NCBI GenBank assembly: GCA_963792585.1
Contig: CAWBWI010000001.1
Coordinates: forward strand, 736,001-800,000
Origin: Candidatus Eiseniibacteriota bacterium
GTDB lineage: Bacteria > Eisenbacteria > RBG-16-71-46 > CAIMUX01 > VGJL01
Direction: 5' to 3'
Length of the DNA: 64,000 nt
Shown here: one piece after another, positions 18,746 through 63,996 of the stretch
Layout: every line of letters begins with the position of its first letter
Position numbering within the stretch: the first letter of the stretch is position 1
Position numbers and translations under genes: made by a program
The notes under the pieces: generated by a model
Told to the model about the DNA's origin: nothing
The model's input: the letters and a program-made list of their open reading frames with translations, nothing else
Databases searched by the model: none

Positions 18746-18773
18746 TTGACAAGTCGCCAGAAGGTGCGAGAAT
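18746..18773 (+). promoter_or_regulatory. Sigma-70-like promoter for the PEP-CTERM/EPS locus
   Basis: TTGACA-16 bp-GAGAAT with extended TGn. Confidence 0.55.
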
Positions 18774-18840
18774 TAGGAACAAGCCGCTCGAGCCCATATG
18801 CGGGGCATCTCCGACGGGGATGCGGCGAGGAGGCATCGTC

Positions 18841-19503
18841 GTGGCAATCACCTGGAGCAGGCGTTTCGCTCTATGCGTTGTAATATTAATGACCTCAACC
18901 AGCTGGGCGGGGGCTGCTTCGTTCTTCGACTTCTATGGTTTCGACTACTTGGATGGTCCGCCCCTCTCCGTCGGCACCGTGCTCTCCATCCCAATGTTGT
19001 TCGATCCTGTTCAACCGGATCCGGCCTTACCCCTGGATCTGGAAGGGAATGAATACACTGTGTTTGTCGGAGACCTCCAGATCAACGATGTCCAGTCCTC
19101 CGGAGGGGTCGTGATCGTGACTTTCTCGGGAGGCTTCATCCAGATCTTCGAGGACCCGGCGAAGAACTCACAGTGGACCATCGATCCGCCCAATCCGCAG
19201 GTCCCGACCACGTTCACAGACGGGACCCTGATCCTGGGAGGCGGCTTCACGGACTGCGTGATGATCTTCGACGTCGTATTCGAAACGGGGACTGTCCAGG
19301 GTCATGTCGACTTCACGACCGGGACACGTCTCGACGAACTCGATGCTCCGACCGGCTGGCTCTTCTACGGCGGGGTGACCACGAACCCCCTCGCAGGCAT
19401 CCCGTCCGGCTACGAGATGGCATGGGATCCGCAACTGATGGGTCCCGAGACTGTCCCGACGCACGCCACCACATGGGGCAAGGTTCGGGGGCTGTTCCGA
19501 TAG
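18841..19503 (+). CDS. Secreted protein, paralog of the next gene, ending in TTWGKVRGLFR
   Basis: GAGGAGG RBS, signal peptide, shared PPNP..P.TFTDG...LGG.F and AGIP.GYE blocks. Confidence 0.85.
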   Translation: MAITWSRRFALCVVILMTSTSWAGAASFFDFYGFDYLDGPPLSVGTVLSIPMLFDPVQPDPALPLDLEGNEYTVFVGDLQINDVQSSGGVVIVTFSGGFIQIFEDPAKNSQWTIDPPNPQVPTTFTDGTLILGGGFTDCVMIFDVVFETGTVQGHVDFTTGTRLDELDAPTGWLFYGGVTTNPLAGIPSGYEMAWDPQLMGPETVPTHATTWGKVRGLFR

Positions 19504-19564
19504 GGGCCGCTCCCGGGCGGACCTCCGACCGGAAGCGACTCGGCCAGAAGCCAAGGAGTATTCC

Positions 19565-20260
19565 ATGAAGAAATCGAACCGGAGCTGGATCCTGGTGTGT
19601 GCGGCACTCATCGCTTTCGCCGGAACCGCCGGTCCCGCGATAGCGTTTCCTCTGGTGATGGACTATACGGGATTCACGTGGAGCACCTACACCGGGGGCC
19701 AGTGGCATTTCGACGCCGTCGGGGTGTTGGACAACTTCTCCCCGGCCGTCGGAATTCCCGGGGAGACGTATACCTACTACCTCTCCAACCTGGCGCTCAA
19801 CTCGGACCAGGACTTGGGCTCCGGACTTCACCGTCGCATGTACGGGGGAGGCGAGTTCAGGATCTACGAATCGACGTCACCGGCGGACCGGCCCTACAAC
19901 TACGGCATCAATCCGCCCAACCCGACCGCTCCCGCGACCTTCACCGACGGAAACTACTGGCTTGGCGGAGAATTCTCGAGCTTCTCGCTGCTCATCGACA
20001 CGACGCGCGGCCTCGCCACCGCGACGGGACAGGGAAGCTACGTCGGGGGCAGCTACTATCAGAATCTCTCCGACACCGACCTGTTCACGTTTGCGGGGCT
20101 AACCAGGAACGATCAGGCCGGCATCCCGGTCGGCTACGAGTACGCCATCGACGGCCAGGTCAGCGCCGCTGTAACCCCCGTGCCCGAACCGTCCACGCTG
20201 GTCCTGCTCGGCACGGGTTTGCTCGGACTTTGCGCTCGCTTGCGTCCGTCCAAGAAATAG
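19565..20260 (+). CDS. PEP-CTERM sorting-domain protein
   Basis: Signal peptide; C-terminal VPEPSTLVLLGTGLLGLCARLRPSKK. Confidence 0.93.
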   Translation: MKKSNRSWILVCAALIAFAGTAGPAIAFPLVMDYTGFTWSTYTGGQWHFDAVGVLDNFSPAVGIPGETYTYYLSNLALNSDQDLGSGLHRRMYGGGEFRIYESTSPADRPYNYGINPPNPTAPATFTDGNYWLGGEFSSFSLLIDTTRGLATATGQGSYVGGSYYQNLSDTDLFTFAGLTRNDQAGIPVGYEYAIDGQVSAAVTPVPEPSTLVLLGTGLLGLCARLRPSKK

Positions 20261-20280
20261 CCTAAGAAGCAGATATCCAG

Positions 20281-20320
20281 GCGGGGAGACCTCCGAAGGG
20301 GCCTCCCCGCATTTCTTTGT
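20281..20320 (+). terminator. Intrinsic terminator after the PEP-CTERM gene
   Basis: GCGGGGAG...CTCCCCGC followed by ATTTCTTTGT. Confidence 0.75.
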
Positions 20321-20452
20321 TCCGGAAGAGCGCCTAATAGCTCGACCGGGCCCGCTCCAATGCCGATACTATCGAGGCTCCCGGTACGACCCGGGACGGA
20401 GATCCTCGGAGAGGGCTCCCGGGCGGTCACGGTCGGTCAGGGAGGATCTTGC

Positions 20453-23029
20453 GTGGGACCGCGTTTGAGACGGATTGCGTTGAATGCACTGGACGCGCTG
20501 CTCGTCAACGCCGCGATCCTGCTCGCCCTTCTGTTGCGTTTCGACGGCCATGTCCCCTCCGACTATCTGAGGGGCTATCTCGAGGTTTCCTACTTCGCAA
20601 CCATCGCGGCCCTGGTATTCCTGAACCTCTTCAAGGTTCACCGGACCCTCTGGAGATACGCCGGCGTGCCGACGGCGCTCGCCACGATCAACGCCCTCAC
20701 ACTCGCCTTCGCCGCGTTCTACGGCCTCAACCTCGCAATTCGCCCGCAGCCGCTGCCGCGCAGCGTGGTGATTCTCTCCTGGATCCTCTCGATCGGAGCC
20801 GTCCTTGGGATTCGCCTGTTGTGGAAGTCCCTGCGCCGCCCCGCGCGCCGGAACTCCCAAAGTGGACGGAGAATCCTCATCATCGGCGCGGGGGATGCCG
20901 GGGCGATGGTGGCGCGCGAGCTGGCGCGATCCCCGACCTACCCGGGACATCCCGTGGGCTTCGTCGACGACGATCCGAGGAAGCAGCGCTCCCGCATCGA
21001 GAGCCTGGAAGTCCTGGGCACGACATTCGATCTCCCCCGGTTGTTGTCGGAGAAGCAGATTGGAGAGGTGATCCTTTCGGCCCCGTCCGCGCCGACCCGC
21101 TTGATCCGCCAGGTCGTACGCGTGTGCCTCGATATGGGGGTGACCTGTCGAACCGTTCCTGCCCTCGCGGACTACATCGAGGGCAAGGGCGCCCTCGACC
21201 AGGTCCGCGAGGTGCAGATCGAGGACCTGCTCGGACGGGATCCGATCCAGCTCGACCTCCCGGGAATCCGGACCCGGGTGGCCGGCAAAACGGTGCTGGT
21301 CACCGGAGCGGGCGGCTCGATCGGTTCCGAGCTCTGCCGGCAACTCGCGCGCTTCTCCCCGGGCCGTCTGGTGTTGCTCGATCACAACGAGAACGGCTTG
21401 ACCTATCTGGGTCTCGAACTTCACGAGGCCTACCCGCGGCTCGACGTGCTGCTCGTGGTGGGGGACATCAAGGACGAGATCGGAATCCACGAGCTCTTCG
21501 CAGCGCAAAAGCCGCACCTCGTCTTTCATGCAGCGGCGCACAAGCATGTCAATCTGCTGGAGCGACGTCCCCGCGAGGCGATCCTCAACAACATCATGGG
21601 CACGCGCAACGTCGCGCGGGCCTGCGAGGCCGTCGAGGTCGAGACCCTGACGCTGATCTCGACCGACAAGGCAGTCAATCCTTCGAGCGTCATGGGCGCT
21701 TCAAAGCGCGTCTGCGAGATGATCGTCCAGGGAATGGCGGGGCGCGCGCACTCGACCATGGTGGCGGTCCGCTTCGGAAACGTGATCGGCTCGGAGGGCA
21801 GTGTCCTGCCAATCTTCCGACGCCAACTCGCGCGGGGCGGGCCTCTGACGGTCACCCATCCCGAGGCGAGAAGGTTCTTCATGACGATTCCCGAGGCGAG
21901 CCAGCTCGTCATTCAGGCGGCGTTGCTCGGGCAGTCGGGGGATGTCTTCCTGCTCGACATGGGAGAGCCCGTCCGGATCCTCGAGGTCGCCCGGCAACTG
22001 ATCCGCCTGAGCGGTCTCGAGCCCGATCGCGACGTGAGAATCGAGTTCATCGGGCTGCGACCGGGGGAGAAACTCGAGGAAGAGTTGCTCACGCAGATCG
22101 AGAGGACGCGGACGACCCGTCACTCGAAGATCTACAAGTGCGAGCTGGACGAGCTCGATCCGGTCTCCACCGAGCGTTCGATCGATGGATTGATCCATCT
22201 GGCCGCCCACGGCACGGCGGAAGAGATTCGCGCGGCCTTGCGCGGACTCGTGCGCGAATACAAGGAGGTAACGCCCGCTCCGCTTCCTGCAGGAAGCGCC
22301 ACGAGCGAGGAGAGCTTGCGTCCGACCGGACTCGCGCCCAGCATTCCCGAGCCGACGGGCAAACGGACGTTGGATGTCGTCGCGGCATCCGTGAGCCTTC
22401 TGCTCCTGGCGATTCCCGCCGGCCTTGCCTGGCTCCTGGTCCACGCCTCCGGTCCGGCCCAGGTCGTCTTCCAACCCGAGGAACGGATCGGGGCGAACCG
22501 CCGGCATGCGGATCGACGGAATCTCGGGGGCCGGGTCGGAATCGACCGACGGTACACGGAGCGGAGGAAACGCGGACTTCCGGGCAGGCCTTTCCTGACC
22601 TACCGGATCCGGCTCCAGGCCTCCGAACACGCCAGCCCGTTCCAGATTCGGCTCGCACGGTGGGTCGATGCTCTTCATCTCGATCGACTTCTCTACCTCT
22701 GGAGTGTCTTGCGCGGGGACATGAGCCTCGTCGGACCCTCGGCGCACCTCATCGACGGCGTGGCCTGGAAGCAGGATGCCATCAGCGCCTGGACGTTCGC
22801 GCGCCGGCCCGGCCTTACCGGCCCGTCCCAGATCCTGGGGGGCCAGGGAGAGGAAGTCATCCAGTATGATCGCTACTATGGTCGCCATGCGAATTGGCGG
22901 CTCGACATGGACGCGCTGCGCCAGGCCCTGCCTCGTCTCGTGCGCCGCCGTCCGAATGGTCCGGAACTGCACGAGCCTCCACTGGAGACTCGGACGGCAC
23001 AGGCCACGGGGGAAGGGGAGATCGGCTGA
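20453..23029 (+). CDS. CapD/PglF-like nucleotide-sugar 4,6-dehydratase fused to a degenerate phosphoglycosyl-transferase domain
   Basis: 4 TM, GAGDAG, EDLLGR, TGAGGSIGSEL, HAAAHKHV, STDKAVNP, RFGNV; C-terminal KRTLD...LWSVLRGDMSLVGP...RPGLTG. Confidence 0.9.
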   Translation: MGPRLRRIALNALDALLVNAAILLALLLRFDGHVPSDYLRGYLEVSYFATIAALVFLNLFKVHRTLWRYAGVPTALATINALTLAFAAFYGLNLAIRPQPLPRSVVILSWILSIGAVLGIRLLWKSLRRPARRNSQSGRRILIIGAGDAGAMVARELARSPTYPGHPVGFVDDDPRKQRSRIESLEVLGTTFDLPRLLSEKQIGEVILSAPSAPTRLIRQVVRVCLDMGVTCRTVPALADYIEGKGALDQVREVQIEDLLGRDPIQLDLPGIRTRVAGKTVLVTGAGGSIGSELCRQLARFSPGRLVLLDHNENGLTYLGLELHEAYPRLDVLLVVGDIKDEIGIHELFAAQKPHLVFHAAAHKHVNLLERRPREAILNNIMGTRNVARACEAVEVETLTLISTDKAVNPSSVMGASKRVCEMIVQGMAGRAHSTMVAVRFGNVIGSEGSVLPIFRRQLARGGPLTVTHPEARRFFMTIPEASQLVIQAALLGQSGDVFLLDMGEPVRILEVARQLIRLSGLEPDRDVRIEFIGLRPGEKLEEELLTQIERTRTTRHSKIYKCELDELDPVSTERSIDGLIHLAAHGTAEEIRAALRGLVREYKEVTPAPLPAGSATSEESLRPTGLAPSIPEPTGKRTLDVVAASVSLLLLAIPAGLAWLLVHASGPAQVVFQPEERIGANRRHADRRNLGGRVGIDRRYTERRKRGLPGRPFLTYRIRLQASEHASPFQIRLARWVDALHLDRLLYLWSVLRGDMSLVGPSAHLIDGVAWKQDAISAWTFARRPGLTGPSQILGGQGEEVIQYDRYYGRHANWRLDMDALRQALPRLVRRRPNGPELHEPPLETRTAQATGEGEIG

Positions 23030-23999: not shown

Positions 24000-26222
24000 A
24001 TGCCGATGCAGACTCCGACTTCATTCACGGAGGGACGGGACCTTCGAAGCGTGGCCGCGATGGTGTGGCGCCGAAAGTGGATCGTGGCGATCCCGACCAT
24101 CGCCGGACTTCTTACGGGTGTCGTTGTAGGGCTGCCCAAGATCCTGAAGCCGGTCTATCGCGCCCAGGCAGCCCTCCTGGTGGAATACCCGCAGCCGGTC
24201 AGCAGGAACCTCCAAGAAGTGATTCCCACTGCGGGTCTAACCGATCAGAAGGCGCGCCTCCAGTCGTTGATGCAGAGCAACGAGTTCCTCTTGAAGGTCG
24301 CTGAAGCCAGCGGCCTGCGCGGCGATCCCGGACTCCACAAGTGGGTCGCGAAGAGTCGCCGCCAGTATCGCGACATGTCCGACCAGGAACTCGAGGACCT
24401 GCAACTCACGAAGTGGCTTCGGACGCGCATGCTCGTGATGCCGGGTCGATCGGACAACACGATTCTGGTGAGGTACGACGACTACTACCCCGCGCAAGCG
24501 CAATTGGTCGTCCAGAACCTGACGAATGCGATCATCAAGGCGAACACCAGCGCCCAGCTCGACCGCGTTCGGGCCCTCTACGATTTCAGCGTGGATCAGC
24601 TCGCCGTCTATAAGCAGCGCCTGTCCGATGCGGAGAAGAAGCTCGAGGACTTTCAGCGGGGTGTAAGCGTCGACCGTAGTCGCACGAGCCTGATCGGACC
24701 GGCAAACGAGGCGGAGGCCCGTCGCCAGCGGGCTCAAGCGAACGACGAGCTGGCCCGCACGAGATCCCAACGCGACGCCCTGCGGTCGGCCGTGCAGACC
24801 CGCTCGCCGGAGGCGGCTGCGGAGCTTCGCGCCGGGGCGGGCGCCGGCTGGGCCGCGGCGACGCAGGAGATCCGCGACCTGGAGAGGCAGTACGCCGACG
24901 AGACGGTCGCACCGACCCCCGGACAGGGGAGCGAGTCCATCGCTCTTCAGATCGCGCGCAAGTTCCAGGAGATGGAAGGGATTGCCCGGCAGGTTGTCGC
25001 CCAACCCGGCCGCAACATTCCGGAAGCTCTGCGCGGCCAGGCCGTCGACCTCCTGCTCGCGGAGGCGAGAACGACGGGCATCGAATCGCGCATCGACGGC
25101 TATGACCGGCAGCTGGGCGACTACCAATCCCAGATCGCGGGGACGCCCCGCGAGGAGACGACCCTGAAGCGACTGGCGCAGGACGTGGAGACGAATCGAA
25201 CCCTCTACAACGCGTTCGTGCAACAGATCGCCGCAACACAGATCAGCCAGGCGTTCGAGGCGAACCAAGCGGGGATCCGGCTCACGATCCTGGAGCCGGC
25301 GTCGCGCCCGCTGGCCCCGATCAAGCCCAACCGTGTCGCGGTCGCCGTCCTGGGACTCGTCGTCGGCATGCTGCTCGGCATCGGCGGGTTGGTTCTGATC
25401 GAGCGCCACGACCAGACGTACCGGGATGCGCGCGAAGCGGAGCGATCTCTGGGGTTGCGCGTGTTGGGAACACTGCCGCAGCTCGAGACCGGACGGCGGC
25501 ACAAAGGAGACCGGCTCATCTGGACTCCGAAGCGGCTCGAGGCGTTCCTTCAGGATTCCCCCGCCTTCCAGGAGATGCGCCGGGTGGCGCTCCAGTTGCG
25601 CAACGACGAGGAGTCGCCCGTGCGGAGCCTGCTCGTGACGAGCGCCCGCGGCGGGGAGGGAAAGACGACGGCGTGCATCATGCTGGGCGCGGCCGTTGCC
25701 GCCGAGGAAGCGAAGGTACCGGTGTTGCTTGTCGACCTCGACTTCCGTCGGGCTTCGCTCGGGCGCTCGTTCGGCGTCGACAAGGAAGAGGGAGGACTCG
25801 TCAAGATTCTCGAGTCCCGCCGGTTCGACGAAGGGTGGCCGCAGAAGACGGGCGTCCCAAACCTCCACGTCCTGCCGCTCGGATGCCCTCCGATGCCTCG
25901 CAACGACCTGCTGACATTCGAGAACCTGTCGTGGCTCCTGCCGGAACTCACGCGGCGGTATGGGTTCGTCATCATCGATTCTCCACCGAACCTGCCGGTG
26001 CCCGATCCGCTCATCATCGGCCAGCTGGTCGACGCCGTGATTCTCGTGCTCAAGGCGGGAGGGACCCCCAGGCACATGGTCGAACGCGGGGTGGAGTTGC
26101 AGAAGCAGTTCACCGGAAACCTTCGTGGCCTCTTGATGAACAACGTCGATGAGACCATGCCGTACTACTACGACTACCGGCATTACGGGTACGCGAAGCA
26201 ACCCCGGTCGGAACAGGGCTAA
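24000..26222 (+). CDS. wzc: Polysaccharide chain-length determinant / tyrosine autokinase (Wzc)
   Basis: WRRKW TM, periplasmic coiled coil, PIKPN TM, Walker A SARGGEGKTT, VDLDFRR, IIDSPP, C-terminal YYYDYRHYGY cluster. Confidence 0.92.
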   Translation: MPMQTPTSFTEGRDLRSVAAMVWRRKWIVAIPTIAGLLTGVVVGLPKILKPVYRAQAALLVEYPQPVSRNLQEVIPTAGLTDQKARLQSLMQSNEFLLKVAEASGLRGDPGLHKWVAKSRRQYRDMSDQELEDLQLTKWLRTRMLVMPGRSDNTILVRYDDYYPAQAQLVVQNLTNAIIKANTSAQLDRVRALYDFSVDQLAVYKQRLSDAEKKLEDFQRGVSVDRSRTSLIGPANEAEARRQRAQANDELARTRSQRDALRSAVQTRSPEAAAELRAGAGAGWAAATQEIRDLERQYADETVAPTPGQGSESIALQIARKFQEMEGIARQVVAQPGRNIPEALRGQAVDLLLAEARTTGIESRIDGYDRQLGDYQSQIAGTPREETTLKRLAQDVETNRTLYNAFVQQIAATQISQAFEANQAGIRLTILEPASRPLAPIKPNRVAVAVLGLVVGMLLGIGGLVLIERHDQTYRDAREAERSLGLRVLGTLPQLETGRRHKGDRLIWTPKRLEAFLQDSPAFQEMRRVALQLRNDEESPVRSLLVTSARGGEGKTTACIMLGAAVAAEEAKVPVLLVDLDFRRASLGRSFGVDKEEGGLVKILESRRFDEGWPQKTGVPNLHVLPLGCPPMPRNDLLTFENLSWLLPELTRRYGFVIIDSPPNLPVPDPLIIGQLVDAVILVLKAGGTPRHMVERGVELQKQFTGNLRGLLMNNVDETMPYYYDYRHYGYAKQPRSEQG

Positions 26223-26242: not shown

Positions 26243-27094
26243 ATGAGCGTCGCGGGGGTGCGCGGCGCGAATGACGTCGGAGGGCGGAATCTCCGCCTGG
26301 TGGGCTGGGCCATAGCCATTCTGGGACTCGCCCTGGCCTACAGCGGTACTGCCAAGATCCTGTTCCAGGTCTGGCGCCAAAATCAGAACTACTCGCACGG
26401 ATTCCTCATTCCTCCCGTGGCAGCTTGGTTGATTTGGAGGGAGCGGGCATATCTGCGCACCGCTGAGGGAGGCGGCTCGTGGCTGGGCATCCTCCTGCTG
26501 TTCCCCGCCCTGCTCCTGCAACTCGCCGGTTTGCGGGGCGACGTCGCGACCCTTCAGGGGATGTCGCTCATCCTGGCCGTCGCGGGTATCGTCCTGCAGT
26601 TGCGCGGACCGCGCGTCATGGCTCGAATCGCTTTTCCGATCGCCTTTCTCGTATTCATGATCCCAACCCTCCCGCTCTTCATGAACACGCTGAGCTTCAA
26701 GCTCAAGCTCCTCGCGGCTCGAGGAGCGATTTCGATCAGCCACGCGCTGGGGATCATGGTCCAGCGGGACGGGGTCAACCTGGTCTTCCCGGGCGGCGTG
26801 CTGAGCGTGGAGAACGCCTGCTCCGGCCTCCGATCGCTCGTCGCCTTGATGGCGCTCGGCGCGCTCTTTGCGTACTTGGCGCAGGGGCCGCTCTGGAAGC
26901 GGATTCTCCTCTTCGCGCTGGCCCTTCCGATCGCCGTGCTGGCGAATGTCATCCGCATCTCTGCGCTTTGCGTCTACGCGGGCATGGGAGACGTTCATGG
27001 GGCAGCGGGGCTGTTCCACGAGGTCGGGGGCTTCGCCCTCTTCGGAATCGCCTTCCTGTTGCTGCTCCTCTGCCGAAGGGTGCTCCGGTGCTAG
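26243..27094 (+). CDS. Exosortase (EpsH/XrtA family)
   Basis: YSHGFLIP, catalytic VENACSGLRS, ANVIRI and distal His. Confidence 0.95.
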   Translation: MSVAGVRGANDVGGRNLRLVGWAIAILGLALAYSGTAKILFQVWRQNQNYSHGFLIPPVAAWLIWRERAYLRTAEGGGSWLGILLLFPALLLQLAGLRGDVATLQGMSLILAVAGIVLQLRGPRVMARIAFPIAFLVFMIPTLPLFMNTLSFKLKLLAARGAISISHALGIMVQRDGVNLVFPGGVLSVENACSGLRSLVALMALGALFAYLAQGPLWKRILLFALALPIAVLANVIRISALCVYAGMGDVHGAAGLFHEVGGFALFGIAFLLLLLCRRVLRC

Positions 27095-37807: not shown

Positions 37808-39418
37808 CTAGCGGGTTCTGGACTGCCAGTCCCCGGCGGACTCCTTCCGAGCCATGTCCTCAGCTTGCGGGAAGAGGGCGAGGGCCGCGGTCACCTGCGG
37901 ATCCGTGTCGATGACGGCCTGCCAACGGGCTTCGTCGCCGTAGATATTGCGCGCCATCTCCCGCTTGATACCCGCCCGGACGTCGGCCATCTCCGCCTTC
38001 ATGCTGTCGGCCGAGTATGCGACCTTGCGCTCCTTCAGGAATCCCTCGAAGCGCCGCACGACGTCGTCGGGGATCACGTAGTCTCGCCGGAAGGCATCTC
38101 CGTTTGCGAAGCTCGGCTTCGTCTCCCCGACATACAGGTTGGCGAAGTCGAAGTAGCTGTTCGCGAGCTTCTGCTGCAACTTGCTCGGCAGGGGACGCTG
38201 CGCCAGCTTGACATCGGGAGCAATCCCACCGCCGCCGAGGACGGTACGCCCCGCCGCCGTCTTGAATGCGGGCATCTTCTCGTGGGCCGTATCCTGAGCC
38301 GCCTCCTGTTCCACCTCGGCCGCCGACTCCTCCAGATACCGCTCGCGGTCGCTGTAGTCCCTCTGAATCAATCTACCGCTCGGCGTGTAGTAGCGTGCGA
38401 CCGTTAGGAGCAGGGCGCCGCCGTTCTTCAGGGGGTATTGCCGTTGCACGAGTCCCTTGCCCCAGCTCGTCTCGCCGACAACCAGCCCGCGGTCCCAATC
38501 CTGCAGGGCACCGGACACGATCTCGGAGGCGCTCGCCGTGCCGTGGTTGATCAGCACGATCAGCGGGTACTTCGTGTGCTTGCCGCGCCCTGTCGAGAAA
38601 TACTCCTCGTTGGAGTCGGGGATCCGGCCAAGCGTGTAGACGAGTTTCTTACCGGCGGGGAGGAACTTGTCGGACATCTCGATCGCCTGGTTCAGATACC
38701 CGCCGGCATTGCCACGCAGATCGAGGACGAGCTTCTCCATGCCCTGGGATTCGAGCTTCTGCAGCGCCGTCTCGAGCTCGTCGCTCGTGGTCGCCGAGAA
38801 CCGGTTGACATAGACGTAACCGATGCCCGGCTTCAACATGAACGACGCGGGGACGCTGTAGATCGGGATTTCCTCGCGGACGATGTCGAACTCGAGCGGG
38901 TCCTTCTCACCGGGCCGCCGCACGGTCACGTGGACGACGGTGCCACGCTCACCCCGAAGCTTGTCGAAGACCTCTTCTTCCTTGATCCCCTTGGCGGTGG
39001 TTCCGTCGATCTTGCTGATGACGTCGCCCGCCCGGATACCCAGCTTGTCCGAGGGGGAACCCGCGATGGCAGAGATCACCGTCAGGTCACCGTCGACGAT
39101 CGCGAATGAGACCCCGATCCCGTAGTAGGTCCCGCGGTTGCGTTCCTGCATCTTCTGGAAGCGATCCGGGTCGAGGTAGTTGGAGTGCGGGTCGAGCTGG
39201 TCGAGCACCCCCTTGATCGCGCCATCGACCAGGTCTTCGCCGTTCGTCTTCTCGACATAGTTGTCGTTGACCAGCGAAAGGACCTCGGTCAGCACCTGGA
39301 GCTGGCTATAAACGGTCCGTCCGGCCGCCATCCCGGTATTGAGGGCGCCGGCCCCCGCCAGAATGGCGACGAGCGCTACGCAGCCGGTGACGACAAGGAC
39401 GATACGCTTCGGGTTCAT
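37808..39418 (-). CDS. S41 family C-terminal processing peptidase (CtpA/Prc-like)
   Basis: LDPHSNY, PDZ GIGV, LDLRGNAGG, TASASEIV, SWGKGLVQ, ARYYTPSGR. Confidence 0.95.
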   Translation of the reverse strand: MNPKRIVLVVTGCVALVAILAGAGALNTGMAAGRTVYSQLQVLTEVLSLVNDNYVEKTNGEDLVDGAIKGVLDQLDPHSNYLDPDRFQKMQERNRGTYYGIGVSFAIVDGDLTVISAIAGSPSDKLGIRAGDVISKIDGTTAKGIKEEEVFDKLRGERGTVVHVTVRRPGEKDPLEFDIVREEIPIYSVPASFMLKPGIGYVYVNRFSATTSDELETALQKLESQGMEKLVLDLRGNAGGYLNQAIEMSDKFLPAGKKLVYTLGRIPDSNEEYFSTGRGKHTKYPLIVLINHGTASASEIVSGALQDWDRGLVVGETSWGKGLVQRQYPLKNGGALLLTVARYYTPSGRLIQRDYSDRERYLEESAAEVEQEAAQDTAHEKMPAFKTAAGRTVLGGGGIAPDVKLAQRPLPSKLQQKLANSYFDFANLYVGETKPSFANGDAFRRDYVIPDDVVRRFEGFLKERKVAYSADSMKAEMADVRAGIKREMARNIYGDEARWQAVIDTDPQVTAALALFPQAEDMARKESAGDWQSRTR

Positions 39419-39568: not shown

Positions 39569-39678
39569 CCCTCTCGTTGGGCGTGGGGAAAAGGCCCCCG
39601 GCCGGCCGGCGGAACCCCCTCGGGGCTCAAGACGGCCTTACCGGCGCCCGATCCGAATGCAGAGGAGGAGGTGGGTCC

Positions 39679-40982
39679 GTGAACCTCGAAAGCAAACTGC
39701 GCGATCGATCTGCACATCTTTCAGTCATCGGTCTCGGGTACGTCGGTTTGCCTTTGGCCACCGAGTTCGCCAAGGCGGGTTTCCGTGTGACCGGCATCGA
39801 GTTGGACGCCGGAAAGGTCGCCTCGATCATGAAGGGGGTCTCCTATATCCAGGATGTCCCCAGTGAGTGGATTGCCCCGCTCGTGCGAGATGGGCGCCTT
39901 GCCGCCACGACCGACTATTCGGTCCTGGCCGGCTGCGATACGGTCAACATCTGTGTCCCGACGCCGCTCGGGAAGACGCGGGCCCCGGACCTCTCCTACA
40001 TCAACGGCGCCGTCGAGAGGATCGCGGAATTCCTTCATCCCGGGATGCTGATCATCCTCGAGAGCACGACCTACCCGGGGACGACGGATGAGGTGATTCA
40101 GGCCCGGCTCGAACTGACCGGGCTTCGGACGGGCACGGACTTCCACCTCGCCTTTTCCCCGGAGCGCGTCGACCCGGGCAATCCGGTGTATCAGACGAGG
40201 AACATCCCCAAGGTGGTGGGCGGCTTCACGCCGGAGTGCACCCGCCTGGCGAAGATCCTCTACGAATCCTGCGATGGACACGGTGGTCCCGGTCAGGCTC
40301 CACGAGGGTCGCCGAGATGGTCAAGCTGCTCGAGAACACCTTCCGAAGCGTGAACATCGGGCTCGTCAACGAGCTTGCGCTCCTGTGCGACCGGATGGGA
40401 ATCGACGTCTGGGACGTCATCGACGCGGCGGCCACGAAACCGTTCGGGTTCATGCCGTTCTATCCCGGGTCCGGGCTTGGGCGGCCACTGCATCCCGATC
40501 GATCCGTTCTACCTCTCCTGGAAGGCGCGGGCGGCCGGCTTCGAGGCTCGCTTCATCGAACTCGCGGGTCAGGTCAACTCCTACATGCCGCGAACACGTC
40601 GTGGAGCGGATCGCGTCGCGCTGAACTCGATCCGCCGGAGCGTGAACGGCTCGAAGGTCCTCGTCCTCGGCGTCGCCTACAAGGCCGACATCGACGACCT
40701 GCGCGAATCTCCCGCGCTCGACATCCTGAAGCGACTCGCGGAGATGGGGGCGCCGAGTTTAGTACCACGACCCGTATCGTGCCCTCGCTGGACGTCGGGG
40801 AGATCCACCTCGAGTCGGTCGACCTGACGGACGACGCGCTGCGGCGAGTGCGACTGCGCCGTCCTGATCACCGCCCACAAGGAGTTGCCCTACGACCGCA
40901 TTCTCGAGCGGAGAGTCGGCTCGTCGTGGACACCCGCAACGGTTGGAAAGGGGTGAGCAGCCCGAAGCTGCACCGGCTCTGA
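39679..40982 (+). CDS. Nucleotide-sugar dehydrogenase (WbpA/TviB/WecC family), several frameshifts
   Basis: [67 protein letters not shown] spread over three frames. Confidence 0.88.
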
Positions 40983-40996
40983 GGCAGGAGGCATCA

Positions 40997-41953
40997 TTGG
41001 GCGACATCGTGCTCGTCGACGGGCGGGGCCGGGTTCATCGGCTCCCACCTGGCCGAGAGGCGTCTCGAGGACGGCCGCAACGGTCCGCATCCTGGACGAT
41101 CTCTCGACGGGACATCGGGAGAACGTGGATCGACTGAGCGCGCGGTTCACGGGGCAAGCTCGAGGTCATCGACGGGGACATCCGCGACCGGGACACGCGT
41201 CGGCCCGGGCGATGCAGGATGTGCGGGAGGTCCTCCACGAGGCGGCTCTGCCGTCCGTCGAGCGCTCGGTCCGCGACCCGTGGACGAGCCACGAGGTCAA
41301 CGTGGACGGGACGCTCGGGCTTCTGGAGGCCGCCCGCGCGAGAGCGAAGGTCCGTCGGTTCGTCCTCGCGGGCTCCTCTTCGTCTACGGAGACCAGCCGG
41401 AGCTGCCCAAGCGCGAGACGATGGCCCCCTCCCCGCGATCGCCCTACGCCCTGTCGAAACTCATCGCCGAGCAGTACGACGCGGCTCTATGCGGAGCTCT
41501 ATGGGCTCCCGACCTTGACCTTCCGCTACTTCAACGTCTTCGGTCCCCGCCAGGACCCGGACTCTCCCTACGCGGCGGTCATCCCCCTCTTCCTCAGGCC
41601 ATCCGGACAGGGGGAGTCGCCGACGATCTACGGCGACGGCGGGCAGACCCGCGACTTCACCTTCATCGACAACGTCGTCGAAGCGAACATCGCCGCGCTC
41701 GACTGCCCGCCGCCGAACGGGGACGCCGATGAACATCGCCTGCGGACGGCAGACGTCGCTCCTTCAGTTGCTGGACGGGCTGTGCGACGTGTGCGCGACC
41801 AAGGTCCAACCGGACTTCCAACCACCCCGGCAGGGGGACGTCCGGGATTCCGTGGCCGACATCAGCCGAGCGACCGATCGGCTCGCCTTCGCCCCGAAGG
41901 TCTCGTTGGAAGAGGGGCTCAAGCGAACGGTGGAGTGGTTCACGCGGAGTTGA
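40997..41953 (+). CDS. NAD-dependent nucleotide-sugar epimerase (WbpP-like SDR), several frameshifts
   Basis: GGAGFIGSHL, HEAALPSVERSV.DP, SPYALSK, RYFNVFGPRQDPDSPYAAVIP, GDGGQTRDF, GDVRDSVAD. Confidence 0.85.
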
Positions 41954-42063
41954 TCCGGACGCGGCGATCTGCCCGCAACTCATGCTTTTTGCGGCTCCCC
42001 ACGCGGCAGTTCCGATCGCGATCCGACTGCCGGGTTCGTTCTGCACAAGCGCAACATATTGTG

Positions 42064-42127
42064 AAACAATGCGTTAGACTACCTCGAAAGAACGCCGCAA
42101 CTTGCCCTTCCCGGGCACGATAGTCGC
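42064..42127 (+). promoter_or_regulatory. Sigma-54 promoter with upstream IHF-like site
   Basis: GGCACG-ATAG-TCGC (GG 42114-15, GC 42126-27, 10-bp spacing); AAACAATGCGTTA at 42064-42076 is one mismatch from WATCAANNNNTTR. Confidence 0.62.
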
Positions 42128-42144
42128 CATGGAGTGGATCGACC

Positions 42145-43365
42145 ATGATGTCGATTCACCTGAATGCCCGGGCAAGCCTGCTGGGACTCCTTTGCCTCGC
42201 GGGAACCGCGACGAGCGGCCTTTCCGGCGACCTTGGGGGTCAGGCGGGACATTTGCGTTCGAGTCGCTCCGGAGACCTTCTACGGCCTCCGAGGCGGTCT
42301 TCGGGGGCAGTTGCGGCCCCGAAGCCGGTCCGGAAGCGGCCCGGAGCAACCCGGCCGCCCTCAGCGGCATCCTCGATTTGACCTTGGCGGCCAGCCATCA
42401 GTCTTGGCAGACGGACCTTCAGGAGCAATGGAGCGGTCTCGCATTCCCGATCCCCCGCGGGGGAGCCTCCGTGGAGATCTCCGCGTTCCACGCGGGTGCA
42501 CTGGAGGCCTCTCGCCTGACGGTCTTTCGCTTGGCTCTTTCCGGCCAGTTGAGTTCCTGGCGGGCCTGGGCGCAGGCGTCACGGTCCGTCCGGGACTGCG
42601 GGCTGGATTGTCCGTGCACGGCCTCTACCTCGGAAGCGATGGGAGCCGGCTGACAGGCATGTCCGTGGGCGGCGGATTGGAGTGGGACGTTTCGGGAATG
42701 ACGCTCGGCATGGCTGCCCGAAACATCGGGGCGCGTCCGAGGGGAGACCAGGGGGTCTATCGACTCCCGGCGGAATTCACCTTCAGCGCGAGGTCCGACG
42801 TCCGCAGACGCGCGACGCTCGGGCTGGTTGCGACGCGGGATCGGGACGGAGAGATGCGGGGATCTCTGGCCTCGCGCGTGCGGCTGCACGGCGGCGTCTC
42901 GCTCATGGCGGGAACGCGGTACGAGACGGCTGCGGATTCGGAACCGGTCCGCGGGAGCGCCGGGCTCGAAGTGCAACTCGGCGCCCTCATGATCGGCTAC
43001 GCGCTCACGCCCGGAGACGAGCTGGGATCCGGACACGTTGTCTCGGTTCGCTTCACGCGGACCCGATCCCAGCGGCCGACCGCCGTTCTCGCCGCGCCGT
43101 CGCCCGATCCGGTTCACCGTCCTTCACCAGCATCCGCGGAACTTGGAGTCCCGGCACCCGCCACGTACGCGGTCTGGGTGGGATCCACCGATCTCCCGCG
43201 AGCGCGACCGCGGAGGTGCGCGCCCTGCGCGCTCAGAGGCTCCCGGGAGCCGATGTGATCGCCCTCGATGACGGGACCTACCGCGTCCGCATTGCGCGGC
43301 ACCTCCCGCGGGAGGAAGCGACTCTGCTCGCGCAACGCCTCCAAGCGGTCACCGAAGTCGAGTAG
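42145..43365 (+). CDS. PorV/PorQ-like outer-membrane beta-barrel with C-terminal SPOR-like domain, frameshifted
   Basis: NPAAL...SHQSW, LGMAARNIG, amphipathic strands ending HVVSVRF, Pro linker, then YAVWVG...GTYRVRI...EEATLLAQRL; pieces in different frames. Confidence 0.6.
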
Positions 43366-43432
43366 CCTGCTTGCCACCGTCCCCTCGGGCCGATACGCTC
43401 CAGCGGGGGTGATCCCCCGGCAAGGAGCGGGC

Positions 43433-44502
43433 ATGGCGCGGTTCGTCATCACGGGTGGGGCGGGGTTCATCGGTTCGCACGCCGCGGAGCACTTCGCGGC
43501 GCGGGGTCACGAGGTGGTCGTCGTCGACAATCTCTCGCGGGGCACGCTCCTCCAGAAGGCGGATCCCAACGCCACCGCACAACTGGGACTATCTGGGGGC
43601 GATTCCCGGGATCGAGACGGGTGCGCGGCGACATGCGGGAGGCCGGGTTGATGGACCGCCTGGTTCGGGACGCCGACGCGATTCTCCACGCCGCGGCGCA
43701 GACGGCCGTGACGACCTCGACGATCGACCCCGAGACCGACTTCACGTCCAATGCGCTGGGCACCTTCCGCGTTCTCGAGGCGGCGCGCAGGTCGCGACGC
43801 CAACCGACCGTCATCTACTGCTCGACGAACAAGGTCTACGGCGCGAACGTCAACCGCGTGCCGATTCTCGGTCGAGGACCGAATCGCTATGATTCGGCGA
43901 GCCGTACACGCGGGGGATTCGAGGAGACCTTCGGGATCGACCTGTGCGAGCACACCCCCTACGGTTGCTCGAAGCTGACCGGCGACCTCTACGTCCAGGA
44001 CTATCGGCCATCTCTACGGTCTGCGCGACGGCGTCTTCCGGATGTCGTGCATCTACGGAACGCGTCAGTTCGGCATGGAGGACCAAGGGCTGGGTGGCGT
44101 GGTTCGTCCTGGCCGCGTTGACCGGCGCGCCGCTCTGACCGTCTTCGGCGACGGCCGCCAGGTCCGCGACGTCCTCTGGGTCGACGATCTCGTGCGCGCC
44201 TACGAGGCCTTCCTCGAGGGGGCCGCAGATCGGCGTCTACAATATGGGCGGCGGTCCCCAGATGACCCTCTCCCTGCTGGAACTCGTGGATCAGCTCGAG
44301 GCGCGATTGGGGCACCCGGTCCAGTACGGGATCGGACCCTGGCGGCCCAGCGATCAGAAGGTCTACATCTCCTGCATCGATCGCGCACGGGCGGAACTCG
44401 GCTGGGAGCCGAGGGTCGACTCCATCCGAGGGTGTCGACCGGCTGATCGCCTGGGCCCAGCAGAAGATCGATCTCTTCGCCCATCTGCGCCCGACTGGGT
44501 AA
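43433..44502 (+). CDS. NAD-dependent epimerase (CDP-paratose 2-epimerase-like), several frameshifts
   Basis: ITGGAGFIGSH, HAAAQTAVTTS, STNKVYG, TPYGCSK, MSCIYGTRQFG.EDQG, GDGRQVRDVL, RPSDQKVY. Confidence 0.85.
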
Positions 44503-63318: not shown

Positions 63319-63996
63319 CTACGCCCGCTTGCGTTTTCTCGCCACGGCCGCGCCGATGAGACCCCCGCCGAGGAGCAGGATGCTCGTCGGTTCGGGGATG
63401 GGGGTCGTCACCGTATCCGGAACGAGCAGGTGGTTGCCGATGGAGCCGTCTGCGGCGGGATCGCTCGGGTCGGTGTCGTTGACGAAGAACCCCGCGTTCC
63501 AGGCGGCATTCTGTCCGTAACCGCCCGCATTCCCGTCCTTCGAGTAGAAGTCGCCCCACATCGGCCGGCGATCGCTGTCGAAGGCAACGTGAGTGGTCGT
63601 TCCCAAAGCCCCATCGAACTTGACGGCATGGAGATTCTCGGGGATCAGAGGATTGCTGCCGCCCTCGGACCCGAACCAGTCGACGCCGAGGCTGCTGAAA
63701 TCCCCCGTCGCATTGGAGATGTTTGCGGTGGTGAAGGTTCGCGAAACCTCGAACAGCAAATGGCTCGTGGCGCCGGTGGGATGCGAGAACGTGTAGTCGT
63801 AATGCCACGTCAGGTCAGCATTCTGCGTGACGATCCAGTCGAGCCTCGTCGTGCCGCCGGCGATCCAGTTTCCGTTGCCGAGGATCCCCCCGTCGGCGCT
63901 CGAGAGGTAGCCGACGAAGGCTTGAGAGGCCGTCGGGAGCGCGGTCAGAAGGGCAATGTTGAGAATAAGTATGACGATCCGCAAGGAACGGCTCAT
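63319..63996 (-). CDS. PEP-CTERM sorting-domain protein
   Basis: Signal peptide (ASQA); C-terminal IPEPTSILLLGGGLIGAAVARKRKRA. Confidence 0.93.
   Translation of the reverse strand: MSRSLRIVILILNIALLTALPTASQAFVGYLSSADGGILGNGNWIAGGTTRLDWIVTQNADLTWHYDYTFSHPTGATSHLLFEVSRTFTTANISNATGDFSSLGVDWFGSEGGSNPLIPENLHAVKFDGALGTTTHVAFDSDRRPMWGDFYSKDGNAGGYGQNAAWNAGFFVNDTDPSDPAADGSIGNHLLVPDTVTTPIPEPTSILLLGGGLIGAAVARKRKRA

Follow-up and report, generated by a model that had tools for sequence, protein, structure and literature searches.

The 64,000-nucleotide stretch of DNA analysed here (the window) belongs to the genome of a Candidatus Eiseniibacteriota bacterium (assembly GCA_963792585.1, contig CAWBWI010000001.1, positions 736,001 to 800,000 of the forward strand), which comprises 5.4 Mb in 7 contigs at 65% G+C and is 84% complete with 1.2% contamination. 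Two adjacent genes on the plus strand of the window encode related proteins that end differently, and the ending of the first, a 17-residue C-terminal tail built around the residues TWG (hereafter the TWG tail), is the subject of this report. The upstream open reading frame (ORF), ORF A (18820..19503), encodes an exported beta-sandwich protein of 227 amino acids (aa) from the first ATG, or 220 aa from 18841, as in the database copy. Its product ends ...VPTHATTWGKVRGLFR, and the last 17 residues, TVPTHATTWGKVRGLFR (19450..19500, with the TAG stop at 19501-19503), are without a hydrophobic run. ORF B (19565..20260, 231 aa) is a paralog that ends in a PEP-CTERM sorting signal (VPEPSTLVLLGTGLLGLCARLRPSKK; 20177..20257). 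Specifically, its residues 205-227 match PF07589 (E 6.8e-7, 29.6 bits, cut-off 20.7), and TIGR02595 scores 21.9 bits (cut-off 16). ORF A matched no family in Pfam and NCBIfam when searched with hmmscan at E<=10.

Signal-peptide-like N-termini were found on both proteins, which share 35% identity over 137 aa (BLASTP, E 2e-20). The BLASTP alignment stops at A206/B199, ahead of both tails, and the segment PE-TVPT of ORF A aligns with TPVPEPS of ORF B; both proteins carry a Pro-rich hinge. An earlier note on this DNA had described two neighboring signal-peptide paralogs whose likeness ends before the tails, one of them with a PEP-CTERM end, and our results agree with it on both counts.

We searched all six-frame ORFs of the genome for the tail with a regular expression and then with a 22-residue profile. 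The profile search placed the TWG tail at the very C-terminus of 111 ORFs, with the logo P-[TV]-P-[TV]-x-x-[TS]-T-W-G-x-[IV]-[KR]-x-L-[YF]-R-stop; W and G were present in 102/102 tails and the final R in 98/102. A strict 10-residue version of the motif was terminal in 100 of 49,500 ORFs (>=60 aa), compared with none among reversed ORFs and none in any of 5 shuffled sets, and 100 of its 111 occurrences at any position were at the very end. The proteome scan thus bears out the suggestion that the motif recurs at C-termini. TWG tails are found on ~3% of the genes in the genome. The tail proteins are small (median 245 aa), 94/111 have a signal-peptide-like N-terminus under a crude hydropathy rule, and 13/109 start with a lipobox-like sequence. 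Tail genes also tend to lie together, with 67/109 within 3 kb of another tail gene.

The passengers that carry the tail are diverse. With the tails removed, the 103 proteins of at least 100 aa fell into 33 BLAST groups with 27 singletons, and the largest group (59 proteins) was joined partly by a Cys-rich C...C-x-PNPC module. Among 20 representatives (of 109), Pfam domains were assigned to six (CHRD, DUF7450, NHL, CBM_4_9, LTD, and AhpC/TSA), 13 had no Pfam match, and one more had a sub-threshold DUF7901 alone. No Pfam or NCBIfam (release 20) model covered the tail in these 20 representatives (hmmscan at E<=0.1). The earlier note had allowed that the motif might occur only in the ORF A family; instead, it ends 111 ORFs with passengers from CHRD to AhpC/TSA, most of them with export-like N-termini. 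One of these passengers is a TlpA/ResA-like thiol-disulfide oxidoreductase (AhpC-TSA, Redoxin; C2:319467-320018, minus strand) with the tail ...TWGLIKNLYK. TlpA/ResA-like oxidoreductases are usually periplasmic.

The same passenger also occurs with other endings. A passenger-only profile (A2), made from both passengers with the tails cut, was run against 1.84 billion representatives and matched 236 of these proteins (E<=0.001). Of the best 150 of these 236, as classified by script, 95 end in the strict TWG motif, 3 in PEP-CTERM-like tails, and 52 in other ways, many of the latter being relaxed variants (NWG, SFG, SWT and so on) or fragments. Approximately 15 of the best 150 are longer proteins (315-1122 aa) that carry a type IX secretion system (T9SS) C-terminal domain and no internal TWG. 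In our genome, the Cys-rich ...C-x-PNPC module likewise precedes either the TWG tail or a T9SS domain. Homologues of ORF A itself (32-74% identity) carry a TWG-type tail in 19/19 cases; one ends in N rather than R, and three have 3-14 extra residues past the tail.

The tandem arrangement of ORF A and ORF B recurs as well. In the genomes G013, G091, G126, and G127 (family f1) and G103 and G128 (family f3), the TWG member comes first and the PEP-CTERM member (VPEP, transmembrane segment, basic residues) second, an order seen in 6/6 genomes where the tandem was found (31 searched). The tandem lies downstream of divergent Yip1 and Macro genes. In one further genome (G011), a more distant pair has the TWG tail on both members. 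The argument from one passenger with alternative tails is therefore stronger than the earlier note had claimed, as this passenger is seen with three endings, TWG, PEP-CTERM, and T9SS.

To evaluate the tail in its structural context, we used an AlphaFold2 model of ORF A built from a 21-row alignment. Residues 35-207 form a beta-sandwich, mostly with a predicted local distance difference test (pLDDT) score >90, while the last two 10-residue blocks score 54 and 49. Foldseek gave no PDB match for the passenger fold at E<=0.001. The low scores of the end, compared with >90 in the beta-sandwich, answer the question whether the tail might be an integral part of the fold: in the model, it does not pack into it. 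With regard to physical character, the mean over 101 tails is a net charge of +2.3 for the last 10 residues and a hydrophobicity of -0.16. The helical hydrophobic moment (0.505) is equalled by 34% of shuffles, and a strand-like periodicity does somewhat better (equalled by 12%). The tail had previously been described as short and amphipathic with no transmembrane helix. The lack of a hydrophobic stretch is confirmed, but with an ordinary helical moment and negative hydrophobicity we refrain from describing it as an amphipathic helix.

These properties bear on the possibility that the tail needs no reader at all, and that its W, Y/F, and K/R residues form a cationic interfacial anchor on a membrane leaflet or lipopolysaccharide, comparable to the amphipathic anchors at the C-termini of some periplasmic enzymes. 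The aromatic and basic residues, together with the positive charge, would suit such an anchor, as would a short helix that AlphaFold2 places at 218-225 with low confidence and unpacked on the domain; that a few tails tolerate 1-15 residues past the motif also fits. Nonetheless, the ordinary moment and the negative hydrophobicity argue against it, 9-10 residues are short for a stable anchor, and the invariant W-G with its fixed spacing across phyla exceeds what generic membrane binding would need. We consider this explanation quite unlikely.

Taken together, the TWG tag is modular, strictly terminal, and conserved across orthologues; it is attached by a Pro/Thr hinge and lies outside the fold of the passenger; and on relatives of the passenger it occupies the place of a PEP-CTERM signal or a T9SS domain. 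A modular, terminal, and conserved ending outside the fold that is swapped with two known signals is the signature by which sorting signals are recognised. We therefore favor, with a probability of roughly 0.55, the view that the TWG tail, as a modular tag at the C-terminus, likely serves in sorting or docking and is recognised after Sec export by a protein partner in the envelope. Exosortases are intramembrane enzymes, and as the tail has no membrane-spanning segment, processing of the exosortase type is not applicable to it. After export, the short basic tail (~+2) would instead bind a receptor, possibly by adding a strand to the sheet of the partner; if the tail were extended, its I/V, small-residue, and Y/F positions would fall on one face, so that binding by strand addition may apply. 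In this way, mostly small binding proteins (median size as above) would be held at a defined envelope site, and the same beta-sandwich may be delivered by two routes: ORF B by exosortase beside the polysaccharide locus, and ORF A by the TWG route.

TWG tails are common well beyond this genome. They were found in 118/121 Eisenbacteria genomes and in 95/101 genomes (up to 53 each) of the phylum of G124, a metagenome-assembled genome (MAG) labelled Fibrobacteraceae with 65% G+C. In 25 G124 loci, the real tail motifs lie 0-6 residues from the end, mostly one residue, and two internal matches to the regular expression are due to chance. The invariant W-G and the near-invariant basic residue in two phyla point to a specific partner. 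A DNA pattern for the tail matched at least 124 loci in records titled Eisenbacteria, Zixibacteria, Latescibacterota, Krumholzibacteriia, Kapaibacterium, Melioribacter, Rosettibacter, Ignavibacteriales, Fibrobacteraceae, and Bacteroidia; this pattern used the stop TRA, so that tails ending in TAG were missed, and it informs on presence in lineages, not on abundance.

In the records searched, two Ignavibacteria have a single tail protein each, ending ...TWGSIKALFR, namely Rosettibacter primus (G121, L196:10007-10402, 131 aa) and a MAG of Melioribacter roseus (G122, L197:10036-10446, 136 aa). The gene has a signal peptide and keeps its position between a MATE-like gene and maf. The Rosettibacter primus record is from a cultured isolate, and the Melioribacter roseus record is a MAG of a cultured species; it is possible that these proteins provide a genetic entry point to the tail in a host that can be cultured.

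The tail genes of our genome also differ in their stop codons, of which 75 are TAG, 22 TGA, and 12 TAA (n=109; paralogs are not independent). Genome-wide usage is 54.6% TGA, 38.3% TAG, and 7.1% TAA in 2520 confident ORFs, and TAG accounts for 37% among ORFs that end in R. In small samples, TAG also leads in Eisenbacteria family f8 (8/12) and in relatives (6/12), but not in G124 (9/24). Read-through of the stop into a hidden domain was considered and ruled out: the in-frame translations 3' of all 109 tails look non-coding, with scattered stops and no conserved extension.

We compared the distribution of the tail with that of the T9SS. The genome encodes PorU (NF033707, 569 bits, cut-off 420) and PorV-family proteins (PF19572), and at least 150 T9SS domains exceed the cut-off; our own profile finds 246 among 3813 crude genes (6.5%). 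When these are counted with the ~110 TWG tails and 10 PEP-CTERM signals, a C-terminal tag is present on nearly a tenth of genes. T9SS C-terminal domains occur in 121/121 Eisenbacteria genomes. Furthermore, T9SS cargo is enriched around tail genes, with 42/296 neighbours compared with 19.5 expected, and 33/48 tail clusters lie near T9SS cargo compared with 24 +/- 3.3 at random (500 placements, maximum 34).

It could be argued from these data that the tail itself depends on the T9SS, as a minimal stand-in for the T9SS domain or a fragment detached from it, and that it is read by a shuttle of the PorV type or by the attachment complex of PorU, with export or anchoring by the T9SS. The proximity of the genes, the universal presence of T9SS domains in Eisenbacteria, and the use of either ending on the same passenger and the same Cys-rich module would all be consistent with this, as would the fact that every lineage seen with the tail belongs to the Fibrobacteres-Chlorobi-Bacteroidetes (FCB) group, judging by record titles and with TAG-ending tails missed. 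The tail and the T9SS nevertheless part company in several places. In the Bacteroidota, the home of the T9SS, only 8/151 sampled genomes match, with 1-2 tails each on open frames of ~140-170 aa, and family f8 of the Eisenbacteria has T9SS cargo in 26/26 genomes but only 0-6 tails. Numbers of PorV-family proteins (NF033710) do not follow those of tails either (2-9 per genome; 3-7 in f8 and 2-4 in the tail-rich family f4). A 17-residue tail is also too short for the beta-sandwich that T9SS export needs, according to PMC4804311. On balance, a T9SS-dependent signal appears unlikely.

A tail placed in front of a T9SS domain was also considered and rejected: none was found in our genome (30 of the 150 domains viewed, together with a motif scan of all ORFs). 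A pattern for a tail followed by PNP had 12 matches in the 121 Eisenbacteria genomes, 11 of which have a stop right after the tail. The sole open match (G097:C3:434319-434365) reads T-W-G-R-I-K and runs on into ...GAPNP, and may be a rare fusion of tail and T9SS domain.

No reader of the TWG tail was found by PorV-family counts or gene neighbourhoods. The number of PorV paralogs was rejected as a clue to the reader, since NF033710 counts in f8 are the same as elsewhere. The 296 neighbours of tail genes included 42 T9SS cargo genes, one group resembling transposases, one of regulators, and a 900-aa HNH-type gene, and contained no recurrent family except the T9SS cargo and the mobile HNH-type gene. 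The HNH-type gene (~900 aa with an HNH-like Cys/His end, e.g., C1:115251-117983) has no Pfam hit and looks mobile. Of its seven copies, five measure ~900 aa and are 83-89% identical, while two are shorter (770 and 788 aa) with an identity of ~58%; three of the seven adjoin tail genes, probably by chance. In tail-poor genomes (G012, G034, G053, G055, and G116) and the two Ignavibacteria, no common candidate gene was found beside the tail gene with crude gene calls.

The neighbourhoods also bear on whether the tail could be an assembly motif that, in the manner of dockerins, pairs tail proteins with one another or with large surface proteins and has no role in sorting. Small proteins encoded in clusters are what such a motif would lead one to expect, and large T9SS cargo genes lie nearby above chance. 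However, no passenger family of T9SS cargo is enriched beside tail genes (25/129 compared with 42/246 overall), and no receptor domain was identified. We regard an assembly motif as very unlikely.

Several of these results weigh against a sorting or docking signal and need to be considered with it. The missing reader, the PorV-family counts, the neighbourhoods without a recurrent partner, and the tail-poor genomes without a shared candidate all count here, and the first of these would also fit the reader-free interfacial anchor. The crude signal-peptide rule failed for 17/111 tail ORFs, some of which are truncated ORFs or have wrong starts. By analogy with known oxidoreductases, the TlpA/ResA-like passenger would fit better with an inner location than with surface display. 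In addition, the tail counts are lower bounds because the genome is 84% complete.

The ORF A/B pair is immediately upstream of a polysaccharide/exosortase locus. The locus opens with an 889-aa fusion of Polysacc_synt_2 and Bac_transf (20360..23029, plus strand; 1.6e-105 and 2e-19), a dehydratase-type domain joined to a sugar transferase, followed by a chain-length determinant/tyrosine-kinase-type protein (24000..26222, plus strand; Wzz, GNVR, and AAA_31 in Pfam) and an exosortase of the EpsH family (26243..27094, plus strand; PF09721, 8.7e-65); further genes encode a Wzy-like protein, an aminotransferase, and a sugar transferase. The position of the pair at the head of an exosortase/exopolysaccharide locus, as previously proposed, is supported by the genes directly downstream. 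The exosortase is the predicted processing enzyme for the PEP-CTERM end of ORF B; its action on ORF A is not predicted, and the presence of PF09721 in the genome bears on ORF B alone. A second PEP-CTERM protein lies near the end of the window (63319-63996, minus strand; PF07589, 27.8 bits) and is one of the 10 matches above cut-off in the genome, compared with ~110 TWG tails.

Upstream of ORF A, a sigma-70-like promoter match (18746..18773, plus strand; TTGACA, 16-nt spacer, GAGAAT, with TG) is a consensus match alone, with 1 found compared with 0.5 expected in shuffles, and is no evidence of function. The pair had also been said to have its own terminator. A simple terminator scan found none after ORF B, but the minimum free energy structure contains a G+C-rich hairpin (20281-20310) that the scan had missed, followed by a U-rich run (AUUUCUUUGUU; 20311-20321); this terminator-like element (20281..20321, plus strand) lies in a 111-nt stretch (20255-20365) with a z of -2.35, and makes the claim plausible. 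Metatranscriptome contigs from four libraries, which are ~93% identical and thus come from a relative, cover ORF A and ORF B and bridge the gap between them, and in 2/4 runs contigs end at 20255 and 20267, just 5' of the hairpin. This is no more than a weak hint, since DNA may be present in RNA libraries and a contig is no proof of a single transcript. Sequencing runs of both DNA and RNA matched small shares of the 64-kb stretch, and no habitat was drawn from them.

Two sugar-nucleotide genes of the locus are split (plus strand). A UDP-glucose/GDP-mannose dehydrogenase occupies two ORFs (N-domain at 39577-40353, central and C-terminal domains at 40375-40827), and an epimerase/dehydratase extends over three (41125-42123, 43268-43651, and 43621-44121). 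These splits (39577-40827 and 41125-44121) may be frameshifts, decay, or assembly errors.

The locus also contains a C-terminal processing peptidase of the S41 family with a PDZ domain and a CtpB-like N-domain (37808-39418, minus strand). The family reads protein C-termini; no tie to the TWG tail was seen. PDZ domains read C-terminal strands by strand addition, and their typical ligands end in a hydrophobic residue. One could thus envisage that the tail is no address but a recognition tag for a C-terminal protease, for quality control or maturation (e.g., by a PDZ-bearing S41 or HtrA-type peptidase), which its strictly C-terminal position and the peptidase in the same locus would favor. But S41 peptidases are common housekeeping genes whose adjacency is here a single case, nearly all TWG tails end in R, extensions past the motif are tolerated, and marking 3% of genes for cleavage would have no obvious purpose. 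Of the explanations considered, we find this one the hardest to credit. The protease tag, the interfacial anchor, and the assembly motif are all less likely than a sorting or docking signal.

With the sorting or docking signal as our preferred explanation, a wider proposal can be made more tentatively, with somewhat less than even confidence: the TWG tail may represent a new sorting/docking system of FCB-group bacteria with a reader of its own, which places ~3% of the proteome (>100 small binding proteins per cell) at an envelope site by means of neither a membrane helix nor a folded domain, and whose tag is freely swapped with PEP-CTERM and T9SS domains. We found no description of the tail in the literature, including searches with spellings of the motif; subscription journals and supplements were outside the search. 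To this we add as new the conserved TWG/PEP-CTERM tandem, the three-way exchange of tails on one passenger, the contrast with family f8, poor in tails yet T9SS-rich, and with the Bacteroidota, the missing correlation with PorV, and the excess of TAG stops. Should the tail serve as an address label, current annotation of Eisenbacteria and the G124 phylum misses an entire layer of their envelope biology, and with a simple tail profile thousands of "hypothetical proteins" would be reassigned to the envelope. The tandem pair is a natural experiment in which the same domain carries TWG or PEP-CTERM beside an exosortase locus. Family f8, the Bacteroidota, and the two Ignavibacteria lineages with a single tail protein provide contrast sets for phylogenetic profiling.

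The NCBIfam sorting signals (LPXTG, GlyGly-CTERM, MYXO-CTERM, T9SS type B, and others) gave no match on ORF A at E<=10 or on 20 tail proteins at E<=0.1, and TIGR04183 and the other T9SS models none on ORF A or 20 further tail proteins. The earlier note had set the tail apart from PEP-CTERM and had named a match to a characterised sorting profile as what would remove the novelty; none was seen in NCBIfam release 20 or Pfam. The NCBIfam "choice-of-anchor" families resemble our case in that one passenger family has alternative C-terminal anchors, yet their models match neither ORF A nor ORF B, and the TWG ending is not among the anchors modelled there. We also compared the tail with the amphipathic-helix anchor of the PBP5 type; here again the model helix is of low confidence and the moment unexceptional. 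The basic terminal domain of Fibrobacter succinogenes (Fpm-1) was rejected as an equivalent, as PMC6851124 identifies it with the T9SS domain of 70-90 aa.

The outer-membrane beta-signal shares with the TWG tail a short terminal strand-like alternation and is read by strand pairing. It belongs to the barrel and has a terminal aromatic residue, whereas TWG tails end in R and are found on soluble beta-sandwich, lectin-like, or redoxin domains. PEP-CTERM (PF07589, TIGR02595, with the exosortase PF09721) is likewise a C-terminal tag on many unrelated Sec-exported passengers, with a Pro-rich hinge and the same position on the paralog. The TWG tail differs from it in having no match to the PEP motif, no membrane helix, and no Arg/Lys cluster after a helix. 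The T9SS type A domain (TIGR04183/PF18962), which is read by PorV and cut by PorU, takes the same place on relatives of the passenger and after the same Cys-rich module, in the same bacterial group and with genes nearby. It is, however, a folded unit of 60-90 residues, compared with a 17-residue tail that is unfolded in the model and rare in Bacteroidota. Even the short T9SS domains of Prevotella intermedia are still ~60 residues (PMC11969387). T9SS type B domains are folded, have five motifs, and are often encoded beside their PorP/SprF shuttles (PMC12618676), in contrast to TWG tail genes, beside which no conserved partner was seen; they also provide an earlier example of a further C-terminal signal class whose own outer-membrane reader sets the location (PMC12618676). 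The signals LPXTG, PEP-CTERM, and the T9SS domain have each brought a machine for secretion or anchoring to light, and TWG tails occur on dozens of genes per genome in most of the genomes sampled from two phyla.

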